Made by a program: the position numbers and the translations under genes
Shown: in pieces, positions 36,124-46,395 of the stretch
Layout: every line of letters starts with the position of its first letter
Numbering within the stretch: position 1 is the stretch's first letter
Notes under the pieces: generated by a model
Told to the model about the DNA's origin: nothing
Seen by the model: the letters and a program-made list of their open reading frames with translations, nothing else
The model's database searches: none
Assembly: GCF_024502345.1 (NCBI RefSeq)
Contig: NZ_JALDNN010000001.1
Length of the DNA stretch: 64,000 bases
From: Escherichia coli
GTDB taxonomy: Bacteria > Pseudomonadota > Gammaproteobacteria > Enterobacterales > Enterobacteriaceae
Reading direction: 5' to 3' (one strand)

Positions 36124-37542
36124 ATGGTAAACCTGGTCATAGTTTCACATAGCAGCCGACTGGGAGAAGGTGTCGGTGAATTAGCCCGTCAGATGTTAAT
36201 GAGTGATAATTGTAAAATCGCCATTGCTGCGGGAATTGACGATCCACAAAATCCCATTGGTACCGATGCCGTCAAAGTGATGGAGGCCATCGAATCTGTT
36301 GCCGATGCCGACCATGTGCTGGTCATGATGGATATGGGTAGCGCATTATTGAGTGCTGAAACTGCGCTGGAATTGCTGGCTCCCGAGATCGCCGCAAAAG
36401 TACGTTTGTGTGCTGCGCCGTTGGTCGAAGGTACACTGGCAGCAACGGTCAGCGCGGCCTCGGGTGCGGATATCGACAAAGTTATCTTTGACGCCATGCA
36501 TGCGCTGGAAGCCAAACGTGAACAACTGGGTTTACCGTCCTCCGACACTGAAATCTCTGACTCATGTCCTGCGTACGATGAAGAAGCCCGTTCTCTGGCG
36601 GTGGTCATAAAGAACCGTAACGGCCTGCATGTACGTCCAGCCTCCCGGCTGGTTTATACCTTATCGACATTTAATGCCGATATGTTGCTGGAGAAAAACG
36701 GCAAATGCGTCACACCGGAGAGTATTAACCAGATTGCGTTACTACAAGTTCGCTATAACGATACGCTGCGCCTGATTGCGAAAGGGCCAGAAGCTGAAGA
36801 GGCACTGATCGCTTTCCGTCAGCTGGCTGAAGATAACTTTGGTGAAACGGAGGAAGTTGCTCCACCTACTCTGCGTCCCGTTCCGCCTGTTTCGGGTAAA
36901 GCCTTTTATTATCAACCGGTTTTATGTACGGTACAGGCCAAATCAACCCTGACCGTGGAAGAAGAACAAGAACGATTACGCCAGGCCATTGACTTCACGT
37001 TATTAGATCTGATGACGTTAACAGCGAAAGCAGAAGCCAGCGGGCTTGACGATATTGCCGCAATCTTTTCTGGTCACCATACACTGTTAGATGATCCGGA
37101 ACTGCTGGCGGCGGCAAGCGAACTCCTTCAGCACGAACATTGCACGGCAGAATATGCCTGGCAGCAAGTTCTTAAAGAACTTAGCCAGCAATACCAGCAA
37201 CTGGATGATGAATATCTACAAGCTCGCTATATTGATGTGGACGATCTTCTGCATCGCACCCTGGTCCACCTGACCCAAACGAAAGAAGAACTCCCGCAGT
37301 TTAACTCGCCAACTATTCTACTGGCGGAGAACATTTATCCCTCCGCAGTACTGCAACTGGATCCGGCGGTTGTAAAAGGTATCTGCCTTAGCGCCGGAAG
37401 TCCGGTATCCCACAGCGCCCTGATCGCCCGTGAACTGGGGATTGGCTGGATTTGCCAGCAGGGTGAGAAACTGTATGCGATACAACCAGAAGAAAAGCTA
37501 ACGCTGGACGTTAAAACGCAACGTTTCAACCATCAGAGTTAA
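36124..37542 (+). CDS. dhaM: Dihydroxyacetone kinase phosphotransferase DhaM subunit
   Basis: ORF 36118-37542; EIIA-like, HPr-like and EI-like segments. Confidence 0.9.
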   Translation: MVNLVIVSHSSRLGEGVGELARQMLMSDNCKIAIAAGIDDPQNPIGTDAVKVMEAIESVADADHVLVMMDMGSALLSAETALELLAPEIAAKVRLCAAPLVEGTLAATVSAASGADIDKVIFDAMHALEAKREQLGLPSSDTEISDSCPAYDEEARSLAVVIKNRNGLHVRPASRLVYTLSTFNADMLLEKNGKCVTPESINQIALLQVRYNDTLRLIAKGPEAEEALIAFRQLAEDNFGETEEVAPPTLRPVPPVSGKAFYYQPVLCTVQAKSTLTVEEEQERLRQAIDFTLLDLMTLTAKAEASGLDDIAAIFSGHHTLLDDPELLAAASELLQHEHCTAEYAWQQVLKELSQQYQQLDDEYLQARYIDVDDLLHRTLVHLTQTKEELPQFNSPTILLAENIYPSAVLQLDPAVVKGICLSAGSPVSHSALIARELGIGWICQQGEKLYAIQPEEKLTLDVKTQRFNHQS

Positions 37543-37861
37543 ACCACCGTTCGGATGGCATCGTTCTGATGTCGTCCGGCAATTTACTCAGCACTAATGG
37601 TTTTTAACTACCTGTTATATTTTTCACCAATTTATGATGATTTTTCTTCGCTAATCACGAACCCAACGCCGCTGGCTGGCTAATAAACAGACGTTATTTG
37701 ATCACTCTTTTTCGCCGTTATTTATCCCTTTAATTCCCTTTTCTAAAATGCCTGACAGTTCGCAGAATGAGATTTCGATCATGCAGCTAGTGCGATCCTG
37801 AACTAAGGTTTTCTGATACTTGAATACCGTTTTATTCGGTTTCGCCTAAGGAGAATGATTG

Positions 37862-39559
37862 ATGAAATCCCCCGCACCTTCTCGCCCGCAAAAAATGGCG
37901 TTAATTCCAGCCTGCATCTTTTTGTGTTTCGCTGCGCTATCGGTGCAGGCAGAAGAAACACCGGTAACGCCACAGCCGCCTGATATTTTATTAGGGCCGC
38001 TGTTTAATGATGTGCAAAACGCCAAGCTTTTTCCGGACCAAAAAACCTTTGCCGATGCCGTGCCGAACAGCGATCCGCTGATGATCCTTGCTGATTATCG
38101 GATGCAGCAAAACCAGAGCGGATTTGATCTGCGCCATTTCGTTAACGTCAATTTCACCCTGCCGAAAGAGGGCGAGAAATATGTTCCGCCAGAGGGGCAG
38201 TCACTGCGCGAACATATTGACGGACTTTGGCCGGTATTAACGCGTTCTACCGAAAACACCGAAAAATGGGATTCTCTGTTACCGCTGCCGGAACCTTATG
38301 TCGTGCCAGGCGGACGTTTTCGCGAGGTATATTACTGGGACAGTTACTTCACCATGTTAGGACTTGCCGAAAGCGGTCACTGGGATAAAGTCGCGGATAT
38401 GGTGGCCAATTTTGCTCATGAAATAGACACTTACGGTCATATTCCCAACGGCAACCGCAGTTACTATTTAAGCCGCTCGCAACCGCCCTTCTTTGCCCTG
38501 ATGGTAGAGTTACTGGCGCAGCATGAAGGCGATGCCGCGTTGAAGCAATACCTGCCGCAAATGCAAAAAGAATATGCTTACTGGATGGACGGTGTTGAAA
38601 ACCTGCAAGCCGGACAACAGGAAAAACGCGTTGTAAAACTTCAGGATGGTACCCTTCTCAACCGCTACTGGGACGATCGCGATACGCCACGACCAGAGTC
38701 ATGGGTGGAAGATATTGCCACCGCCAAAAGCAATCCGAATCGACCTGCCACTGAAATTTACCGCGACTTGCGCTCTGCCGCTGCGTCTGGCTGGGATTTC
38801 AGCTCGCGCTGGATGGACAACCCGCAGCAGTTAAATACCATACGCACCACCAGCATCGTACCGGTCGATCTGAACAGCCTGATGTTTAAAATGGAAAAAA
38901 TTCTCGCCCGCGCCAGCAAAGTTGCCGGAGATAACGCGATGGCAAACCAGTACGAAACGCTGGCAAATGCCCGTCAAAAAGGGATCGAAAAATACCTGTG
39001 GAACGATCAACAAGGCTGGTATGCCGATTACGACCTGAAAAGTCATAAAGTGCGCAATCAGTTAACCGCTGCCGCCCTGTTCCCGCTGTACGTCAATGCG
39101 GCAGCGAAAGATCGCGCCAGCAAAATGGCGACGGCGACGAAAACACATCTGCTGCAACCCGGCGGCCTGAACACCACGTCGGTGAAAAGTGGGCAACAAT
39201 GGGATGCGCCAAATGGTTGGGCACCGTTGCAGTGGATCGCGACAGAAGGATTACAAAACTACGGGCAAAAAGAGGTGGCGATGGACATTAGCTGGCACTT
39301 CCTGACCAATGTTCAGCACACCTATGACCGCGAGAAAAAGCTGGTGGAAAAGTATGATGTCAGCACCACCGGAACGGGGGGCGGCGGTGGCGAATATCCA
39401 TTACAGGATGGCTTTGGCTGGACCAATGGCGTGACGCTGAAAATGCTGGATTTGATCTGCCCGAAAGAGCAACCGTGTGACAATGTTCCGGCGACGCGTC
39501 CACTCAGTGAATCAACAACACAGCCGGTAAAACAAAAAGAGGCGGAACCTACGCCTTAA
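37862..39559 (+). CDS. treA: Periplasmic trehalase
   Basis: ORF 37859-39559; signal peptide and glycoside hydrolase 37 motifs. Confidence 0.95.
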
Positions 39560-39563
39560 CTTT

Positions 39564-39589
39564 GCTGTATATCGAGGCTGTATATCGAG
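39564..39589. repeat. Perfect tandem duplication of 13-bp unit GCTGTATATCGAG
   Basis: Two adjacent identical 13-mers immediately after the treA stop. Confidence 0.9.
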
Positions 39590-39630
39590 CAATGCCATTA
39601 TGTGCATAAAATTGGCATTGCTCTTTTTTC
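39589..39630 (+). terminator. Rho-independent terminator after treA
   Basis: GCAATGCCA...TGGCATTGC hairpin followed by CTCTTTTTT. Confidence 0.7.
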
Positions 39631-39901
39631 GCCACGAAATGCCCCCCACTCTACGGTCTATGCCTTTATTTTCTTTTATTAGAGAAGATTTTAATTTTAT
39701 TTTATCAATTTGTTAATCATTACACCTCTATTTATATTTTTCGCCACTCCGCCATTCTCCCTGACAATTTTCTTGTGGAACAAAGTGTTATTTAAGCAAC
39801 AAGCAAATCACTCTGTCTCTTTAGACAAATTTTGACATCAAACATGATTTTTTCGATATATATGTAAATATATAGCGGTTTTAATTATCAGGATATAACT
39901 T

Positions 39902-40924
39902 ATGTCACTAACCAGACGGAGGTTTACACAGATTCTTGCGTCGACGTTGTTCCTGCATCATCTGCCTTCTTTTGCACAATCAGTCAAATTCTGGGCCTCA
40001 CTGACGCTTCCCGAAGCCCAAAACATTACACGCATCGTCAGCGCAGGTGCGCCCGCCGATTTGCTATTGCTGGCTGTCGCGCCAGAAAAAATGGTCGGTT
40101 TTTCCTCTTTTGATTTTGCCCGTCAGGCATTAATTCCATTGCCAGAGCACATTCGCCAGTTACCCAGGCTGGGACGACTCGCCGGGCGCGCCAGCACACT
40201 CTCGCTGGAAGGGCTTATGGCGTTACATCCCGATTTGGTCGTTGATTGCGGCAATACGGATGAAACCTGGATCTCCCAGGCACGGCAGGTTAGCGAACAG
40301 ACACAAATACCCTGGTTATTGCTTAACGGGAAACTGGCGCAATCAGCAGAACAGTTAACAACGCTTGGCAAAACGTTAGGCGAAGAGCATCGCGCCGCAG
40401 AACAAGCCAATCTCGCCAGCCGCTTCGTTGGTGAAGCTCAGGCATTCGCCGCCTCACCCGCCGCTAACCTCCGCTTTTATGCTGCGCGCGGTCCTCGAGG
40501 GCTGGAAACGGGCTTAAAGGGTTCGTTGCATACCGAGGCGGCGGAATTATTAGGTTTGCACAACGTCGCGCAAATAGCCGATCGCCACGGCCTGACACAG
40601 GTTTCCATGGAAAATCTCCTGCGCTGGCAGCCGGATATTATTCTGGTTCAGGAGGCCGTTACTGCAGATTTTATTCGTCGTGATCCTCTCTGGCATGGCG
40701 TGAAAGCCGTTGCGGAACAACGCATCTTATTTTTAAGTGGCTTGCCCTTTGGCTGGCTGGATGCCCCACCGGGAATCAACCGTCTTCTGGGATTACGCAG
40801 ACTTCACGCCTGGCTGGATCCCGCCATCAATCGCCAGTTTAAAAGTGACATGCAGCATTACGCCCAACTGTTCTGGCATTGTTCACTCAGTGACGCCGAC
40901 TATCAAAAATTGGTGGCGAGCTAA
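39902..40924 (+). CDS. Periplasmic substrate-binding protein of a siderophore/cobalamin-type ABC importer, with twin-arginine-like signal (LTRRRFTQ)
   Basis: 340-aa ORF; AGGA RBS 8 nt upstream; signal peptide followed by a FecB/FhuD/BtuF-like domain; first gene of a tightly coupled operon. Confidence 0.8.
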   Translation: MSLTRRRFTQILASTLFLHHLPSFAQSVKFWASLTLPEAQNITRIVSAGAPADLLLLAVAPEKMVGFSSFDFARQALIPLPEHIRQLPRLGRLAGRASTLSLEGLMALHPDLVVDCGNTDETWISQARQVSEQTQIPWLLLNGKLAQSAEQLTTLGKTLGEEHRAAEQANLASRFVGEAQAFAASPAANLRFYAARGPRGLETGLKGSLHTEAAELLGLHNVAQIADRHGLTQVSMENLLRWQPDIILVQEAVTADFIRRDPLWHGVKAVAEQRILFLSGLPFGWLDAPPGINRLLGLRRLHAWLDPAINRQFKSDMQHYAQLFWHCSLSDADYQKLVAS

Positions 40925-41922
40925 TGAGAATCGTAAACGGATGTATTTTGCTGCTGGCAGCTATCAGTATCACTTTTGCCGCCGTAAGTGGGGCTTATCA
41001 TCTCGATATGCAGCAACTGCTGGCGCTAATTCTTCGTCAAGAAAATGTTCCTGTGCAGGAACAAATTGTCTTCTGGCAAATCCGCGTGCCGCGTATTCTT
41101 GCTGCGCTGTTACTGGGCGCGGCGCTGTTACTGGGCGCGGCGCTGGCAGGAGCCGGAACCACTTATCAGGGAATGTTGCGTAATCCCTTAGTTTCACCGG
41201 ATATTTTAGGCGTCTCCGCCGGTGCCGGACTTGGTGCCTGCGCGGCAATCCTGTGGGGATTATCCATTGTTTACATCCAGCTGTACGCATTTTGCGGCGG
41301 GCTGATGGTGGTCGCGGGCGTCTGGTTGATTACGCGTCGGGTGACCCGCCACGATCCGATCTTAACCCTGGTGCTGGTAGGCATTGCGTTAGGAACGTTG
41401 TGCGGAGCGGGGATATCGCTAATTAAAACGCTGGCCGATCCTTACACCCAGTTACCGTCAATTACCTTCTGGTTGCTGGGGGGACTGTCCACCGTGACCT
41501 TACGCGATCTCTGCTATGCTGCACCGATCATTCTCATTGGCTCCTTGCCCCTGTTTTTTCTCCGCTGGCGCATGAATTTACTCACGCTTTCCGACGACGA
41601 AGCCCGTTCGCTGGGACTGAACGTGACGCGTCTGCGCTTTGGATTGATTGTCTGCGCCACACTAATCACCGCCAGTACGGTAGCAATAGCGGGCATAATT
41701 GGTTGGGTCGGCCTGGTCGTTCCGCACATTGCCCGCTTGTTGACCGGTCATAACCATCAGCAGCTGTTGCCCATGGCAATGTGTACTGGCGCGATTCTGC
41801 TCCTGCTGACCGATACGCTGGCACGCAGCATTGGAACAACAGAAATCCCACTTGGCATTCTGACCGCTTTTGTTGGCGCACCGTTTTTCCTGCTTTTGTT
41901 GTTACGCGGAGGTCGCCAGTGA
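40924..41922 (+). CDS. FecCD/BtuC-family ABC permease
   Basis: 332-aa polytopic ORF with C-terminal GAPFF signature; start overlaps upstream stop (TAATG). Confidence 0.85.
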   Translation: MRIVNGCILLLAAISITFAAVSGAYHLDMQQLLALILRQENVPVQEQIVFWQIRVPRILAALLLGAALLLGAALAGAGTTYQGMLRNPLVSPDILGVSAGAGLGACAAILWGLSIVYIQLYAFCGGLMVVAGVWLITRRVTRHDPILTLVLVGIALGTLCGAGISLIKTLADPYTQLPSITFWLLGGLSTVTLRDLCYAAPIILIGSLPLFFLRWRMNLLTLSDDEARSLGLNVTRLRFGLIVCATLITASTVAIAGIIGWVGLVVPHIARLLTGHNHQQLLPMAMCTGAILLLLTDTLARSIGTTEIPLGILTAFVGAPFFLLLLLRGGRQ

Positions 41923-42677
41923 CTTTGCTTGCCGTCCGTCATGCGTCTCTGGGTTACTCCCGCCATCCAGTGCTACGCGACGTGTCCTTCACCCTGTCGC
42001 AAGGAACAATTTGTTGTCTGCTTGGCGCGAATGGTTGCGGCAAAACCACACTCATGCGCTCCATTCTTGGCGTTATACCGTTATTAAAAGGCGAGGTCTT
42101 ACTGGATAGCCTCCCTGTGCAGACACTCAGCCATCGCCAGCGCGCGCAGGCTATTGCCTGGGTGCCGCAGGCGCACGACGGTATTTTTGCTTTTAGTGTG
42201 CTGGATATGGTGTTGATGGGCCTGGCCCCCACCATAGGCACTTTTTCCGTTCCCGGTAAGCAAGAACGCCTGAAAGCCACGGAGCAACTGGAAAAGCTGG
42301 GCATTTTGCATCTGGCGGCACGACGCTGGAATACGCTTAGCGGCGGTGAACGTCAGCTGGCTTTAATCGCCCGTGCACTCGTCCAGCAACCGCGCTTGTT
42401 GTTACTGGATGAGCCTGCCTCCAGCCTCGATTTTGGTCATCAGATCCAACTACTGGACACGCTGGCGCAGCTCAAAAATAACGGCATGACAATGTTAATG
42501 TCGACTCATCATCCGCTCCATGCCAACGCCATTGCCGACAGCATTATCCAGGTAGAGCCAGATGGACGAGTAACACAAGGCTTACCGACCGAACAGTTAA
42601 CAACGAACAAACTGGCTGCCCTGTATCGGGTTTCTGCCGACCAGATTCATCATCACCTCTCTGCAATTAGCCACTAA
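41919..42677 (+). CDS. ABC transporter ATP-binding protein (FecE/BtuD-like)
   Basis: GTG start overlapping the permease stop (GTGA); Walker A GANGCGKTT, signature LSGGERQ, Walker B LLLDEP; 252 aa. Confidence 0.85.
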   Translation: MTLLAVRHASLGYSRHPVLRDVSFTLSQGTICCLLGANGCGKTTLMRSILGVIPLLKGEVLLDSLPVQTLSHRQRAQAIAWVPQAHDGIFAFSVLDMVLMGLAPTIGTFSVPGKQERLKATEQLEKLGILHLAARRWNTLSGGERQLALIARALVQQPRLLLLDEPASSLDFGHQIQLLDTLAQLKNNGMTMLMSTHHPLHANAIADSIIQVEPDGRVTQGLPTEQLTTNKLAALYRVSADQIHHHLSAISH

Positions 42678-42686
42678 GGAAAAATC

Positions 42687-43499
42687 ATGCTCATTGATGA
42701 TATTGATTTTGCAGACCTCTACCTGCAGCAACTCAAACTGGCCCACCGCACAGAAAAAACGCCGGATCACTGGGATCAACGGGCGGAAAAAATGGCGGAA
42801 AATTGCGCCTCGCCTACGGACAGCTACCTGCAACAACTGATCGCTAAAATTGACCTACAAGGCGCTCAGACCTTATTCGATATGGGCTGCGGACCGGGTA
42901 CCGTATCGCTGGCGCTGGCTGACAAACTCACGACGATTTATGGCGTTGATTACAGTCAGGGGATGCTGAACGTTGCCGCCCGTCGCGCCGCCTCGCTGAA
43001 GGCAGACAATGTCCACTTGATCCAGCGCGCCTGGGAAGAGGACTGGAGTGACCTGCCACGCTGCGATATTGCCGTGGCTTCCCGCTCCACTCTGGTGGCT
43101 GATATGCGCCAGGCAATGAGCAAACTGAATAATCAGGCACGGCTTCGCGTCTATACGACTCATCTGGTCAGCACCTCGTTCGTCTCTCCAGCCATTCAGC
43201 GGGCGGCTGGTCGGGAAGTGATCGAATTACCCAACTATATCTTTGCGCTCAACGTCCTGTATCAGATGGGAATTTATGCCCACGTTGATTTTATCCGTGG
43301 ACAAAATTGCCAACAGGATAACAGCACCTGGGAACGTTTTGAGCAGAACGTCAGCTGGAGTCTTGGCGCGCTTAACGACGATGAGCGTGAGCGGTTATAT
43401 CACTGGTATCAACAACAAGATGCTCGTGCCCTCGCCCCTGCCAGCCGCGACTGGGCGCTCATCTGGTGGGATAGCGTACCGCAGGAGGCACTGCGATGA
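42687..43499 (+). CDS. Class I SAM-dependent methyltransferase
   Basis: 270-aa ORF with AAGGA RBS and SAM-binding motif I (LFDMGCGPGTVSLALA). Confidence 0.75.
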   Translation: MLIDDIDFADLYLQQLKLAHRTEKTPDHWDQRAEKMAENCASPTDSYLQQLIAKIDLQGAQTLFDMGCGPGTVSLALADKLTTIYGVDYSQGMLNVAARRAASLKADNVHLIQRAWEEDWSDLPRCDIAVASRSTLVADMRQAMSKLNNQARLRVYTTHLVSTSFVSPAIQRAAGREVIELPNYIFALNVLYQMGIYAHVDFIRGQNCQQDNSTWERFEQNVSWSLGALNDDERERLYHWYQQQDARALAPASRDWALIWWDSVPQEALR

Positions 43500-44350
43500 T
43501 TTTCCTTTCTCAGGCACAAATCGATGCGTTACTTCTGGAAGATATCCAGGGCGGTGACCTGACTACGAGAGCATTAAATATTGGACACCAGCATGGCTAT
43601 ATAGAGTTTTTTCTCCGTCAGGGCGGCTGCGTCAGCGGCGTTTCTGTTGCGTGTAAGATGTTAACTACGCTGGGATTAACTATTGATGACGCGGTCAGCG
43701 ACGGTTCACAAGCGAACGCGGGTCAACGGCTAATCCGTGCGCAGGGTAATGCCGCAGCACTTCATCAGGGATGGAAGGCAGTCCAGAATGTGCTGGAGTG
43801 GAGTTGCGGTGTTTCTGATTATCTCGATCAAATGCTGGCGTTACTTCGTGAACGTTATCCTGATGGCAATATCGCCTGCACCCGAAAAGCAATTCCGGGC
43901 ACCCGCTTACTGGCCTCGCAGGCAATTCTGGCTGCCGGAGGACTGATTCATCGTGCCGGATGTGCGGAAACCATATTATTGTTTGCCAACCACCGCCATT
44001 TTCTTCCTGACAATCAGGACTGGTCAGGCGCAATCGATCAGTTACGTCGCCACGCACCCGAGAAGAAAATTGTTGTTGAAGCCGACACGCCGAAAGAGGC
44101 AATCGCCGCGTTACGCGCGCAACCTGACGTACTTCAGCTCGACAAATTTAGTCCGCAACAGGCAACTGAAATTGCGCAAATAGCGCCGTCGCTGGCTCCC
44201 CACTGCACGCTGGCTCTGACCGGCGGAATTAATCTGACGACACTCAAAAATTACCTCGACTGCGGCATTCGCCTTTTTATTACCTCCGCGCCTTATTACG
44301 CGGCACCGGCTGACATTAAAGTCAGTCTGCAACCCGCAGCCTCTATTTAA
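43496..44350 (+). CDS. ModD-like protein (NadC/quinolinate phosphoribosyltransferase fold family)
   Basis: 284-aa ORF; AGGAGG RBS; start overlaps the methyltransferase stop (ATGA). Confidence 0.65.
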   Translation: MIFLSQAQIDALLLEDIQGGDLTTRALNIGHQHGYIEFFLRQGGCVSGVSVACKMLTTLGLTIDDAVSDGSQANAGQRLIRAQGNAAALHQGWKAVQNVLEWSCGVSDYLDQMLALLRERYPDGNIACTRKAIPGTRLLASQAILAAGGLIHRAGCAETILLFANHRHFLPDNQDWSGAIDQLRRHAPEKKIVVEADTPKEAIAALRAQPDVLQLDKFSPQQATEIAQIAPSLAPHCTLALTGGINLTTLKNYLDCGIRLFITSAPYYAAPADIKVSLQPAASI

Positions 44351-44375
44351 TTCTTTGTTAAACGGAATTTATTCT

Positions 44376-46346
44376 ATGAGACTCAAAAAACGTTATCTCT
44401 GCACAGCATTATCACTTGCCTTTACCCAGCAGGCCGTAGCGGCTCAGGAGAGCGACACGCTGACCGTATGGTCCAGTCCGGTATCATCGACGACGACCAC
44501 CGTTCTCGATCAACCCACCATGAAGGCCCTGGATAAACAGAATGTCGCTCAGGCATTAAGTGTCGTCCCCGGCGTGGTGCTGCAAAAGTCAGGCAGCCGC
44601 AACGAAGAACAGGTAAAAGTTCGTGGCTTTGATAGTCGGCAGGTGCCGGTCTATTTCGACGGTGTGCCCATTTATGTTCCCTATGACGGCAACCTCGATC
44701 TGGCGCGGATTCTGACCAACAATCTGGGGGCAGTCGAAGTTTCCAAAGGGTATTCGTCGCTGCTTCAGGGGCCTAATCAGATGGGCGGAGCCATTAATAT
44801 CACCACCCAGAAGCCATCAAAACCTCTGGAAGCAAATCTGGGATATCGCCAGGGATGGAGCCGTAGCCAGGACAATGCCTACGATATGCATGCTTCATTT
44901 GCCGCCAGTAGCGATCTGGGGTATTTGCAAGTCAGCGGTAGCCAGCTAAAGCAGGATTTTCTCGGCCTGCCGCATGGTGTAAATAATGATATTGCAGGCA
45001 AACACGGCAAGATGATTAATTCATCGGCTGATGATAAACGCGGCATTGTGAAGCTCGGATTTACACCACGTGAAAACGATGAATACACACTGACTTACAT
45101 TAAGCAGGATGGTGAAAAAGATAACCCGCCATACAGCGGAAATAGTGGTCAAAAATCACGCTACTGGCAGTGGCCAGAGTATGACAAAGAAAGTTTTTAT
45201 TATCAGGGAACGACCCAACTAAACGATCGTTTTACCCTGAAAAGTCGGCTGTATCGCGACACCTTTGAAAATACGCTGATGATGTACAACTCGCTGGCTG
45301 ATTTGAAAAATAAAAAAGGCAGCTACAGCCATTATTCCGATTACAGCGACGGTGCCGGATTACAACTGGCAGCCGATGTGCGTGAAAACGATCTGCTGTC
45401 GTTTGCCGTTAACTGGAAAGATGACGTACACCGGGAAAAAGGTGCGCCGCACGCCGCTTACGATCGCTATGAAGATCGTACCTGGTCGCTCGCCAGTGAA
45501 TATCAATGGGCTGCTGCCGATAATGTCGATGTCGTGGCTGGAATCAGCTATGACTGGCGCGATAGCGTAGAAGCGAAAAAACACGAGAAAGATGACAGCA
45601 TCACCCATTATGACGACAACAATCAGTCAGCTTTTAACTGGCAAGTGATGGGGAAATACCACTTTGCCAATGAAGACACGCTGGCGCTTTCGTACTATGA
45701 CCGCACACGCTTTCCGACGCTGAAAGAACGCTATACCACATCCAAACCTGCGTATAACCAGATAGCGATTGTTAACCCGCAGCTCAAGCCGGAACGCGCT
45801 CGCGGGGTGGATTTAACCTGGAATGGTGCCTTCACGCGCGACTGGGGATTTGAGGTCAGCGTTTACTATAACCGGGTGAGTGATGCCATCCTCTCGCACA
45901 ATATCGATGCCGATACCATTCAAAATCAGAACAGCGGCACGGTGGATTACAGCGGTCTGGATGCCGGTATTAAGGGGAAAATCAGCAATATACTGGATGT
46001 AGGATTGAGCTACGCCCTGATCCACGCTGACGCCAAACGCAAAGACATCGGCAAGATAACCGATCTGCCAACGCAGACAATGACCGCATGGATGACTCTC
46101 AAACCGTGGGAGCCGTTAAGCGTAACGCTGTCGGAAGAGGCGCGTTCCTCCAGCTACAGCAACAGTGACGGTTCACAAAAAGCCGCCGGTTTTGCGGTGA
46201 CCCACATTCGAGCCGATTACACCTTAGGTCATGGCTTCAGCGTCAATGCGTCGGTCAATAACCTGTTTGATACCCAATATGCCTACAGTGAAGGGTTTAT
46301 TGAAGAAGGCCGCAATTTCTGGGCAGGTGTCGAGTATACGTTCTGA
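44376..46346 (+). CDS. TonB-dependent outer-membrane receptor
   Basis: ORF 44355-46346; likely start at ATG 44376; signal peptide, TonB-box-like DTLTVW, plug domain, C-terminal ...GVEYTF. Confidence 0.85.
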   Translation: MRLKKRYLCTALSLAFTQQAVAAQESDTLTVWSSPVSSTTTTVLDQPTMKALDKQNVAQALSVVPGVVLQKSGSRNEEQVKVRGFDSRQVPVYFDGVPIYVPYDGNLDLARILTNNLGAVEVSKGYSSLLQGPNQMGGAINITTQKPSKPLEANLGYRQGWSRSQDNAYDMHASFAASSDLGYLQVSGSQLKQDFLGLPHGVNNDIAGKHGKMINSSADDKRGIVKLGFTPRENDEYTLTYIKQDGEKDNPPYSGNSGQKSRYWQWPEYDKESFYYQGTTQLNDRFTLKSRLYRDTFENTLMMYNSLADLKNKKGSYSHYSDYSDGAGLQLAADVRENDLLSFAVNWKDDVHREKGAPHAAYDRYEDRTWSLASEYQWAAADNVDVVAGISYDWRDSVEAKKHEKDDSITHYDDNNQSAFNWQVMGKYHFANEDTLALSYYDRTRFPTLKERYTTSKPAYNQIAIVNPQLKPERARGVDLTWNGAFTRDWGFEVSVYYNRVSDAILSHNIDADTIQNQNSGTVDYSGLDAGIKGKISNILDVGLSYALIHADAKRKDIGKITDLPTQTMTAWMTLKPWEPLSVTLSEEARSSSYSNSDGSQKAAGFAVTHIRADYTLGHGFSVNASVNNLFDTQYAYSEGFIEEGRNFWAGVEYTF

Positions 46347-46351
46347 TGTGA

Positions 46352-46384
46352 AAGCGGATAGCGGCATCTGTATCGCTATCCGCC
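46352..46384. terminator. Bidirectional terminator hairpin between the receptor gene and ymgE
   Basis: Inverted repeat GCGGATAGCG-loop-CGCTATCCGC between convergent stops. Confidence 0.55.
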
Positions 46385-46395
46385 TTATGAAAATC

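Follow-up and report, generated by a model that had tools for sequence, protein, structure and literature searches.

A six-gene TonB-dependent uptake operon between treA and ymgE of Escherichia coli, a probable member of the ModE regulon

We analysed a 64,000-nt stretch of the Escherichia coli chromosome (RefSeq assembly GCF_024502345.1, contig NZ_JALDNN010000001.1; hereafter the window). Between treA and ymgE it carries six genes for a periplasmic substrate-binding protein (SBP), an ATP-binding cassette (ABC) importer, two cytoplasmic enzymes and a TonB-dependent receptor. Judged from its sequence, this cluster is probably an operon of the ModE regulon that transports a molybdenum species, and probably tungsten as well. 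The cluster has been named before, as prrA-modD-yc73-fepC, O157:H7 OI#55 or S-loop#83 (ECs1693-1699), and was described from uropathogenic and avian E. coli and O157:H7 as "proposed to be involved in iron uptake" (PMC1890555, PMC12928451); it serves there as a putative iron-uptake marker for pathogenic lineages or islands. An initial annotation of the window had regarded a well-characterised named system with known substrate as a refutation of its reading; a name does exist, but it stands for a putative iron system. In the papers that we searched, we found neither functional work on the cluster nor any connection of it with ModE or molybdenum, and no analysis of its synteny or loss; ModE control of it was not reported there either, and an earlier prediction in ModE-site surveys (Studholme & Pau 2003) or in RegPrecise is possible.

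Genes and control region of the cluster

The gene order in the window is dhaLM-treA, the six-gene cluster and ymgE-ycgR-emtA-ldcA-cvrA. Between the treA terminator and the convergent ymgE gene, six intact open reading frames (ORFs) lie on the plus strand at 39902-46346. The features of the locus are as follows.

39587-39629, plus strand: intrinsic terminator of treA, read by eye; 11-bp arms GAGCAATGCCA and TGGCATTGCTC in a hairpin at 39587-39623, then T6
39832-39837, plus strand: perfect -35-type hexamer TTGACA, read by eye; the left half of the ModE box follows 16-19 nt further downstream
39902-40924, plus strand: SBP gene; 340 aa, Peripla_BP_2, cluster A / class III, periplasmic with a twin-arginine signal
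40924-41922, plus strand: permease gene; FecCD/BtuC-type permease of a type II ABC importer, MolB-like
41919-42677 (RefSeq start), plus strand: ATPase gene; ABC ATPase, MolC-like
42687-43499, plus strand: methyltransferase gene ('yc73'); cytoplasmic class I enzyme dependent on S-adenosylmethionine (SAM), Pfam Methyltransf_31/25/12/11
43496-44350, plus strand: ModD gene; TIGR01334, quinolinate-phosphoribosyltransferase-like protein
44376-46346 (RefSeq ATG), plus strand: receptor gene ('prrA'); TonB-dependent, Plug and TonB_dep_Rec barrel
46354-46383, no strand assigned: inverted repeat GCGGATAGCG-N10-CGCTATCCGC between the convergent receptor and ymgE genes, kept in K-12

The genes are joined, in order, by TAATG, by GTGA, by a 9-nt gap with an AGGA ribosome-binding site, by ATGA and by a 25-nt gap. 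A longer GTG start at 41781 is also open for the ATPase gene, as is a TTG at 44355 for the receptor gene. RefSeq annotation of near-identical strains gives the same six genes. The initial annotation had described six co-directional genes with these junctions between treA and ymgE, and the sequence confirmed all of this. Its domain assignments (Tat-exported SBP, FecCD permease, ATPase, SAM-methyltransferase, ModD and receptor) held in profile searches, and its picture of a TonB-dependent uptake operon with two embedded cytoplasmic enzymes is supported by the ORFs and the profile matches.

On the upstream side, the operon's own control region is delimited by the treA terminator; our automated terminator scan did not call this hairpin, as its 15-nt loop is beyond the strict loop rule. 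At the other end, the inverted repeat is a candidate terminator shared by the receptor gene and ymgE.

The control region contains a predicted ModE operator, CGATATATA-TGTAAA-TATATAGCG (in full CGATATATATGTAAATATATAGCG), at 39854-39877, which is -48 to -25 from the SBP start codon. The E. coli ModE consensus is atCGnTATATA-N6-TATATAnCGat, as quoted in PMC545781. We searched for it as a pattern of 18 core positions, CGNTATATA-N6-TATATANCG, and counted mismatches. The site has no mismatch in the 18 positions and is the sole match in the 64 kb when up to two are allowed (0.01 expected). As a control, the same pattern was run with up to three mismatches over 34 kb of K-12 covering modEF-modABC and moaABCDE, and it returned exactly two sites, those of modA and moaA. 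The operator of the cluster fits the consensus better than both the modA operator (CGTTATATTGTCGCCTACATAACG, two mismatches, -43 to -20 from the ATG) and the operator upstream of moaA (CGCTATATACATGATTACATAGCG, one mismatch).

The TTGACA hexamer would serve as the -35 element of the operon promoter, placing the -10/+1 region inside the ModE box, an arrangement expected for repression. Hexamers resembling TTGAC(A/T) occur with similar spacing in Symbiopectobacterium, Serratia, Pantoea, Erwinia, Providencia, Morganella and Proteus. A consensus promoter scan called no -10 element next to the ModE box under its strict -10 rule. With molybdate plentiful, ModE-molybdate would bind 39854-39877, cover the -10/+1 region and switch the operon off, as at modA; with molybdate scarce, all six genes would be transcribed.

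A different regulator was considered as well. In databases and comparative-genomics papers, the system is labelled an iron transporter. The ModE-like palindrome could be incidental and the cluster could take up a ferric chelate or haem under Fur-type iron control. The RefSeq name of the SBP, 'iron ABC transporter substrate-binding protein', and the putative iron system of the literature favour this explanation. The initial annotation had suggested a Fur motif scan. We ran a 19-mer consensus over the window and 48 orthologous promoters and found no Fur box that recurs with the same sequence or at the same place, whereas the ModE box does recur. The best Fur matches in the orthologous promoters reach 9-15/19 at scattered positions, no better than the background of the window, and matches of 12-13/19 are equally frequent in other parts of the window. 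Near 39710 there is a Fur-like TTGTTAATCATTAC, which was rejected as a Fur site since it is not conserved. The 342-nt leader contains no riboswitch for B12 or the molybdenum cofactor, and Rfam at E<=1 over 37500-48500 gave one chance small-RNA match only.

Conservation of the operator and the transport proteins

A ModD profile scan with one genome per species yielded 80 loci (1.49 Mb). Among these loci, those with the order SBP-permease-ATPase-methyltransferase-ModD-receptor come from 15 genera: Escherichia, Citrobacter, Yokenella, Raoultella, Klebsiella indica, Enterobacter, Serratia, Symbiopectobacterium, Pantoea, Erwinia, Pectobacterium, Affinibrenneria, Proteus, Providencia and Morganella. 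This kept order, together with the treA/ymgE site shared by related genera, is the outcome of the gene-neighbourhood comparison that the initial annotation had proposed. We then scored the 48 six-gene loci with enough upstream DNA, taking as a box any site with at most 3/18 mismatches within 350 nt of the SBP gene. A ModE-type box was found upstream of the SBP gene in 47 of the 48 loci, with two mismatches or fewer in 37. It usually lies 25-45 nt before the SBP start codon; apart from the box, the intergenic DNA there cannot be aligned from one genus to another. In 26 loci, the ModD and receptor genes are more than 90 nt apart, for example in Proteus, Providencia, Morganella, Pectobacterium and Serratia, and 24 of these loci have a second ModE box in the gap. 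The 1.49 Mb contain only 20 other box matches, and many of those inspected precede methyltransferase-ModD pairs or modABC-like genes at loci that lack the six-gene order.

The importer proteins resemble MolBC-A of Haemophilus influenzae, a type II importer of molybdate and tungstate demonstrated by experiment (PMC4031551, PMC3928620, PMC4245157). The best match of the permease in the PDB is MolB (HI1471, 2nq2_A; 8.5e-62, 212 bits), followed by FhuB, BhuU, HmuU and BtuC at 156 bits or less. For the ATPase, MolC (HI1470, 2nq2_C; 2.7e-36) is the best single-domain importer ATPase in the PDB, and the NCBIfam matches are generic. The SBP begins with MSLTRRRFTQ, whose twin-arginine motif is kept in orthologues, and its closest relative in a PDB sequence search is 4pag (8.6e-27), an uncharacterised Sulfurospirillum protein. 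In a fold search with an AlphaFold2 model of the SBP (predicted local distance difference test, pLDDT, 87), MolA (3psa) ranked fourth, with a template modelling (TM) score of 0.67-0.70, and was the best match with a known ligand. Every score against the NCBIfam equivalogs of classical uptake systems was far below its cut-off, which supports the earlier statement that this is not a classical fec, fhu or btu system. The profile searches proposed at that time placed ModD above its cut-off and the receptor and SBP below those of all named families.

The permease gene of this strain carries an in-frame 18-bp tandem duplication (GCGCTGTTACTGGGCGCG twice, at about 41105-41140). It adds LLGAAL to a predicted transmembrane helix, giving 332 aa compared with 326 aa in O157 EDL933 and RefSeq, and may impair the transporter.

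The receptor has the Plug (7e-21) and barrel (3e-33) domains of Pfam, with a 22-strand-type barrel and the C-terminus ...AGVEYTF. Its N-terminus, MRLKKRYLCTALSLAFTQQAVA followed by AQESDTLTVWS, comprises a signal peptide and then the TonB-box-like DTLTVWS. All features of a TonB-dependent transporter are present, namely signal peptide, TonB box, plug, barrel and C-terminal aromatic residue, and the protein falls below the cut-off of every named receptor family model in NCBIfam.

The proposed uptake of a ferric chelate or haem also draws on these proteins. Among subfamily models, the receptor matches those for haem and siderophore receptors best, the permease and the ATPase are similar to Fec, Fhu and haem importers, and the fold neighbours of the SBP include YiuA and binders of haem and siderophores. 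Nevertheless, the iron and haem matches are far below the family cut-offs (TonB-hemin, for example, 125 vs 317 bits), and MolB is a clearly better match to the permease than any iron permease. The database label 'iron' reflects similarity at the family level only, and together with the Fur results this makes iron uptake an improbable explanation. The fit iron system (FitABCDE-R) was considered as well and rejected: it has a divergent fitA / fitBCDE promoter, two permeases and the regulator FitR (PMC2593036), whereas the cluster has one permease, no regulator and a single direction.

Uptake of a corrinoid or another tetrapyrrole by a Btu-like system, with the methyltransferase acting on the macrocycle, was also considered. 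BtuC is the top NCBIfam match of the permease (229 bits), and the top weak matches of the methyltransferase are CpaM, CbiT and BchM. These methyltransferase matches, however, cover the SAM-binding core only, the BtuC score compares with a cut-off of 461 and the BtuB score with one of 599.7 (79.6 obtained), and no cobalamin riboswitch was found at E<=1. Such a system would also leave the ModE operator unexplained, and we regard it as very improbable indeed.

Receptor homologues also occur beyond Enterobacterales, and the orthologues in Shewanella and Pseudomonas aeruginosa have ModE-like boxes. In Shewanella, an orthologue with 58% identity ends a cluster of SBP, FecCD permease, ATPase, methyltransferase and receptor genes without ModD; ModE boxes lie before the SBP gene (no mismatch) and before the receptor gene (one mismatch). 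In P. aeruginosa, an orthologue with 45% identity is a core gene, found on more than 1000 contigs, beside an Oxidored_molyb ORF, moaA and narGHJI. The sole match to the pattern in 20 kb is a palindrome, CGTTATGTA-N6-TGCATAACG, whose end is 15 nt from the ATG of this orthologue, on its upstream side. No dedicated inner-membrane importer was found near this receptor gene, which fits a product that ModABC can take up. The Oxidored_molyb (PF00174) ORF encodes 182 aa (L085, 10977-11525), is co-directional with the receptor gene and overlaps its 3' end; the encoded protein might work with this receptor as its partner in the periplasm.

Cargo, ModD and the methyltransferase

The initial annotation held that the substrate could not be told from sequence alone. 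The ModE operator, the MolBC-A homology and the gene contexts of ModD nevertheless point to molybdenum. As to its form, we lean slightly towards the free oxyanion, molybdate or tungstate, which is the simplest cargo because of the ligands of MolA, the company of ModD with ModABC and the arrangement in P. aeruginosa. A complexed or thio form of molybdenum is a less likely cargo, and it would better explain the chelate-type machinery, the divergent SBP and the two enzymes. What remains of our expectation falls to a cargo that is not molybdenum at all. In the pathway that we propose, the receptor would capture the molybdenum species at the cell surface and move it into the periplasm with TonB energy. 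The Tat-exported SBP would then hand it to the MolBC-type type II importer for entry into the cytoplasm, where the methyltransferase and ModD would act on the cargo or in molybdate handling.

We know of no function established for ModD in any organism since its first description in Rhodobacter. The ModD of the cluster scores 501.1 bits against TIGR01334 (cut-off 178.85) and 134.6 against the NadC model, below the cut-off of 198.4, and it is homologous to the quinolinate phosphoribosyltransferase (QPRTase) of Mycobacterium tuberculosis (1qpn, 3.6e-19). Residues were numbered by the M. tuberculosis QPRTase, whose reference sequence agrees with the alignment to PDB entry 1qpn. R139, K140, H161, R162, E201 and the GG loop are present in all ModDs examined, and D222 in nearly all of them, including the ModD of the cluster. 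In all 20 of the 20 ModDs aligned, K172 is replaced by Phe and R105 by Lys. Since both replacements occur in every ModD examined, quinolinate is unlikely as a substrate; the set of residues that binds it (R105', R139, K140, H161, R162, K172) is incomplete in ModD. The pocket in the ModD of the cluster is lined by K94, R130, K131, H152, R153 and F163. The protein looks like an active phosphoribosyltransferase-type enzyme with a substrate other than quinolinate.

Outside the six-gene order, ModD adjoins genes for molybdate-type ABC transport (modA TIGR01256, Mo_ABC_porter TIGR01581, modB and modC). This is the case in Cedecea, Gilliamella, Actinobacillus, a metagenome-assembled genome of Alcaligenaceae, and Treponema; in Cedecea, ModD and the molybdate genes are divergent and ModE boxes lie between them. 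In Zymomonas, modD is part of a nif cluster with modE and two TonB-dependent transporters (PMC8594446). By these gene neighbourhoods, ModD is linked to molybdenum across phyla.

The methyltransferase gave only generic class I matches in NCBIfam, Pfam, the PDB sequence search and Foldseek, none of which specifies a substrate. Foldseek matched its AlphaFold2 model (pLDDT 87) to generic small-molecule O-, N-, S- and C-methyltransferases with TM scores of about 0.5. Throughout the Enterobacterales loci, and also in Shewanella, its gene keeps a place beside ModD or the transporter genes. The methyltransferase-ModD pair occurs alone in Edwardsiella and Leminorella. In three Edwardsiella loci (L024, L041 and L050), a ModE-like box with one mismatch lies upstream of the pair and no homologue of the cluster's transporter genes is nearby; no ModE-like box was found in L043 (Edwardsiella) or L054 (Leminorella).

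These two enzymes bear on two alternatives to the import of a free oxyanion. In the first, the molybdenum would enter as a complex, bound to a metallophore, as a thio form or derived from a cofactor, and the methyltransferase and ModD would dismantle or neutralise the carrier. This alternative narrows to molybdenum the suggestion of the initial annotation that the imported ligand may be methylated or phosphoribosylated once inside. A TonB-dependent receptor with a type II importer is the usual architecture for chelates, the SBP is distant from MolA, and the affinity of MolA for free molybdate is poor. The two cytoplasmic enzymes are predicted to be co-transcribed and are conserved; the fold of the methyltransferase resembles small-molecule enzymes, and ModD keeps the residues that bind phosphoribosyl pyrophosphate and ribose while its base pocket is altered by K172F and R105K. 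However, ModD also accompanies plain modABC, a system for free molybdate, which weakens the case for its action on an organic carrier. Shewanella has the transporter without ModD, Edwardsiella the methyltransferase-ModD pair with none of the cluster's transporter homologues nearby, and the P. aeruginosa receptor lacks a dedicated inner-membrane partner in its vicinity, which suggests a product usable by ModABC. No carrier-biosynthesis genes are linked to the cluster. We consider import as a complex possible, at the modest odds given above to a bound or thio cargo.

In the second alternative, the methyltransferase and ModD would be molybdenum-independent back-up enzymes, repressed by ModE in the presence of molybdenum, that replace a molybdoenzyme acting on N-heterocyclic carboxylates or bases. 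Cofactor-independent substitutes repressed by the sensor of that cofactor are an established pattern (PMC545781), ModD is paralogous to QPRTase and differs from it in the substrate pocket, and the three Edwardsiella loci with a box before the pair would suit such enzymes. The proposal is pure inference, though, and ModD sits within transport operons in most taxa, so that a back-up role appears unlikely.

A wider proposal can be made for the receptor family, which is encoded by a core gene in P. aeruginosa and has further members in Citrobacter, Proteus, Providencia, Morganella, Shewanella and pathogenic E. coli. It may constitute the missing outer-membrane step of molybdenum uptake, controlled by ModE, with a cargo in Enterobacterales of bound or thio-molybdenum that the methyltransferase and ModD set free. 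Such a cargo would be expected in sulfidic or host-restricted gut niches. We put this forward as a speculative and rather doubtful extension.

Several points weigh against a molybdenum transporter of the ModE regulon. Bulky chelates are the usual cargo of type II importers and of TonB-dependent receptors, and we know of no role for the methyltransferase or ModD in known molybdate metabolism. We infer ModE binding, molybdate-dependent expression and transport alike from the sequence. The SBP is only distantly related to MolA (HI_1472): identity in the fold comparison is 20%, the sequence match is local, covering residues 206-287 only (5e-08), and the closest solved relative of the SBP, 4pag, has no known ligand. 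MolA itself binds molybdate and tungstate weakly, at ~100 uM (PMC3928620), so that this transporter family may have a different true ligand. About 60% of E. coli lack the cluster, which is therefore dispensable. Moreover, single genes are inactivated in some strains: O157 EDL933 has an internal stop in the methyltransferase gene (L003, 12863-13675) and a frameshift in treA as well, and strain 873.10, the closest relative of the window, has a frameshifted SBP gene (L001, 3904-4925). Together with the established 'iron' designation, these points limit our confidence in a ModE-controlled molybdenum operon, which we still consider probable.

Distribution and comparison with known systems

The cluster is present, by coverage of at least 80% of 39000-47000, in 2139 of 5426 complete E. 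coli genomes, and the others match the flanks only. A K-12-type strain has treA - ycgY(-) - ymgE at the same site, where a 622-bp segment with ycgY replaces the cluster; the initial annotation had given only ycgY for K-12 at this position, and the six genes are indeed absent from the K-12 locus. Homology to K-12 runs on the left up to the treA stop codon (39560) and restarts on the right at 46323. This restart point is inside the receptor gene, so that K-12 retains its last 24 nt (...AGVEYTF*) and the downstream hairpin. The same position, between treA and ymgE/ycgR/emtA/ldcA, is occupied in E. albertii, eight Citrobacter species, Raoultella, Enterobacter and Intestinirhabdus. The G+C content of the cluster is 52.7%, compared with 50.8% for the window, and neither the ORF list nor the RefSeq annotation has an integrase, transposase or tRNA gene between treA and ymgE.

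A horizontally acquired island was rejected on the unremarkable G+C content, the synteny in other genera and the 24-nt receptor remnant in K-12. The same evidence argues for loss and replacement rather than gain: as read from these sequences, the cluster is ancestral, and K-12, like many other E. coli, has lost it and now carries unrelated DNA in its place. Of the earlier description as a strain-variable island, the variability stands and the island does not. ycgY was also considered as a remnant of the cluster and rejected, since tblastn shows no similarity; it is unrelated replacement DNA.

Directly after the treA stop codon comes a perfect direct repeat of 13 bp in tandem (GCTGTATATCGAG twice, 39564-39589), which runs into the terminator stem and is situated at the left edge of the DNA in which the window and K-12 differ. 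Over the last ~60 nt of treA (39501-39560), strains with the cluster differ strongly in sequence from those without it; megablast alignments stop at 39501-39519, blastn aligns to 39560, and the C-terminal ~15 residues of trehalase differ. This divergence suggests that the replacement event reached into treA.

Other records show further variation. Citrobacter koseri (L015) lacks a full permease match and part of the ATPase, Citrobacter braakii (L008) has no ModE box upstream of the cluster, and Morganella morganii MMsCG (L053) lacks a full SBP match; these are signs of local decay in other species. In the P0124 / P0142 match set, one E. coli record has a 720-aa product that fuses most of the receptor to the PilZ/YcgR domains (PF07238, PF07317), probably through a deletion that removed ymgE, and Shigella flexneri records have a truncated receptor of 486 aa without plug. 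The 39000-47000 query also matched 12 places on E. coli plasmids and up to three places per genome. An extra copy of the cluster has reportedly been found on a pathogenicity island of CFT073.

Enterobacteriaceae are held to bloom in the inflamed gut by means of anaerobic respiration that depends on molybdoenzymes (nitrate, S-oxides, formate), a pathway that tungstate is used to poison. Molybdenum uptake is important for virulence, according to a review (PMC7759655). In Enterobacteriaceae this uptake is described as ModABC plus non-specific anion carriers, with no outer-membrane step, and the literature that we searched on molybdenum uptake in pathogens, P. mirabilis and P. aeruginosa describes no TonB-dependent molybdenum transporter (PMC7759655, PMC10174112, PMC9171197). 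If our reading is correct, an energised outer-membrane step would be added to the model of molybdenum and tungsten uptake, and there would be an explanation for a 'putative iron' cluster that tracks with pathogenic and animal-associated E. coli lineages. MolBC-A, so far a curiosity of some Haemophilus strains, would extend to many clinically important genera, and the ModD family would become accessible to genetics. Should the cargo prove to be bound or thio-molybdenum, ModD would gain a function, and tungstate or molybdenum-restriction therapies would be seen to act on Enterobacteriaceae by a new route. The ModE regulon has mainly been defined in K-12, and the system probably escaped notice because K-12 has deleted the cluster.

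Among known systems, MolBC-A of Haemophilus, the 'secondary molybdate transporter' (HI1470-HI1472, with modA and modD adjacent at HI1469 and HI1473-75) shares with the cluster a type II importer of the BtuCD fold, a class III SBP and a modD gene in the locus; the presence of modA and modD in the H. influenzae mol locus is documented (PMC3928620). Neither a TonB-dependent receptor nor a methyltransferase appears in the publications on the Haemophilus locus that we consulted, whereas the cluster has both, and the SBP of the cluster is ~20% identical to MolA and has a Tat signal. Transcription of molB falls with added molybdate through 'an unknown factor' (PMC4031551); while the regulator is called unknown there, the cluster has a canonical predicted ModE operator. 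MolBC-A is described as a low-affinity system, whereas the TonB-dependent receptor of the cluster implies, as we read it, scavenging at low concentration.

The ModABC/ModE regulon of E. coli has the same class of operator, at a nearly equal distance from the start codon at modA, and the same predicted repression; ModABC differs in being a type I importer with a class II SBP and no outer-membrane component. ModD of the Rhodobacter-type modABCD shares TIGR01334 membership with the ModD described here, and both share with NadC the type II phosphoribosyltransferase fold and most catalytic residues; unlike in NadC, K172 and R105 are replaced by Phe and Lys in all ModDs examined. TonB-dependent transporters for metals other than iron are known for zinc (ZnuD), copper (OprC) and nickel (FrpB4), and the receptor of the cluster resembles them as an outer-membrane receptor predicted to be under the sensor of its presumed metal.

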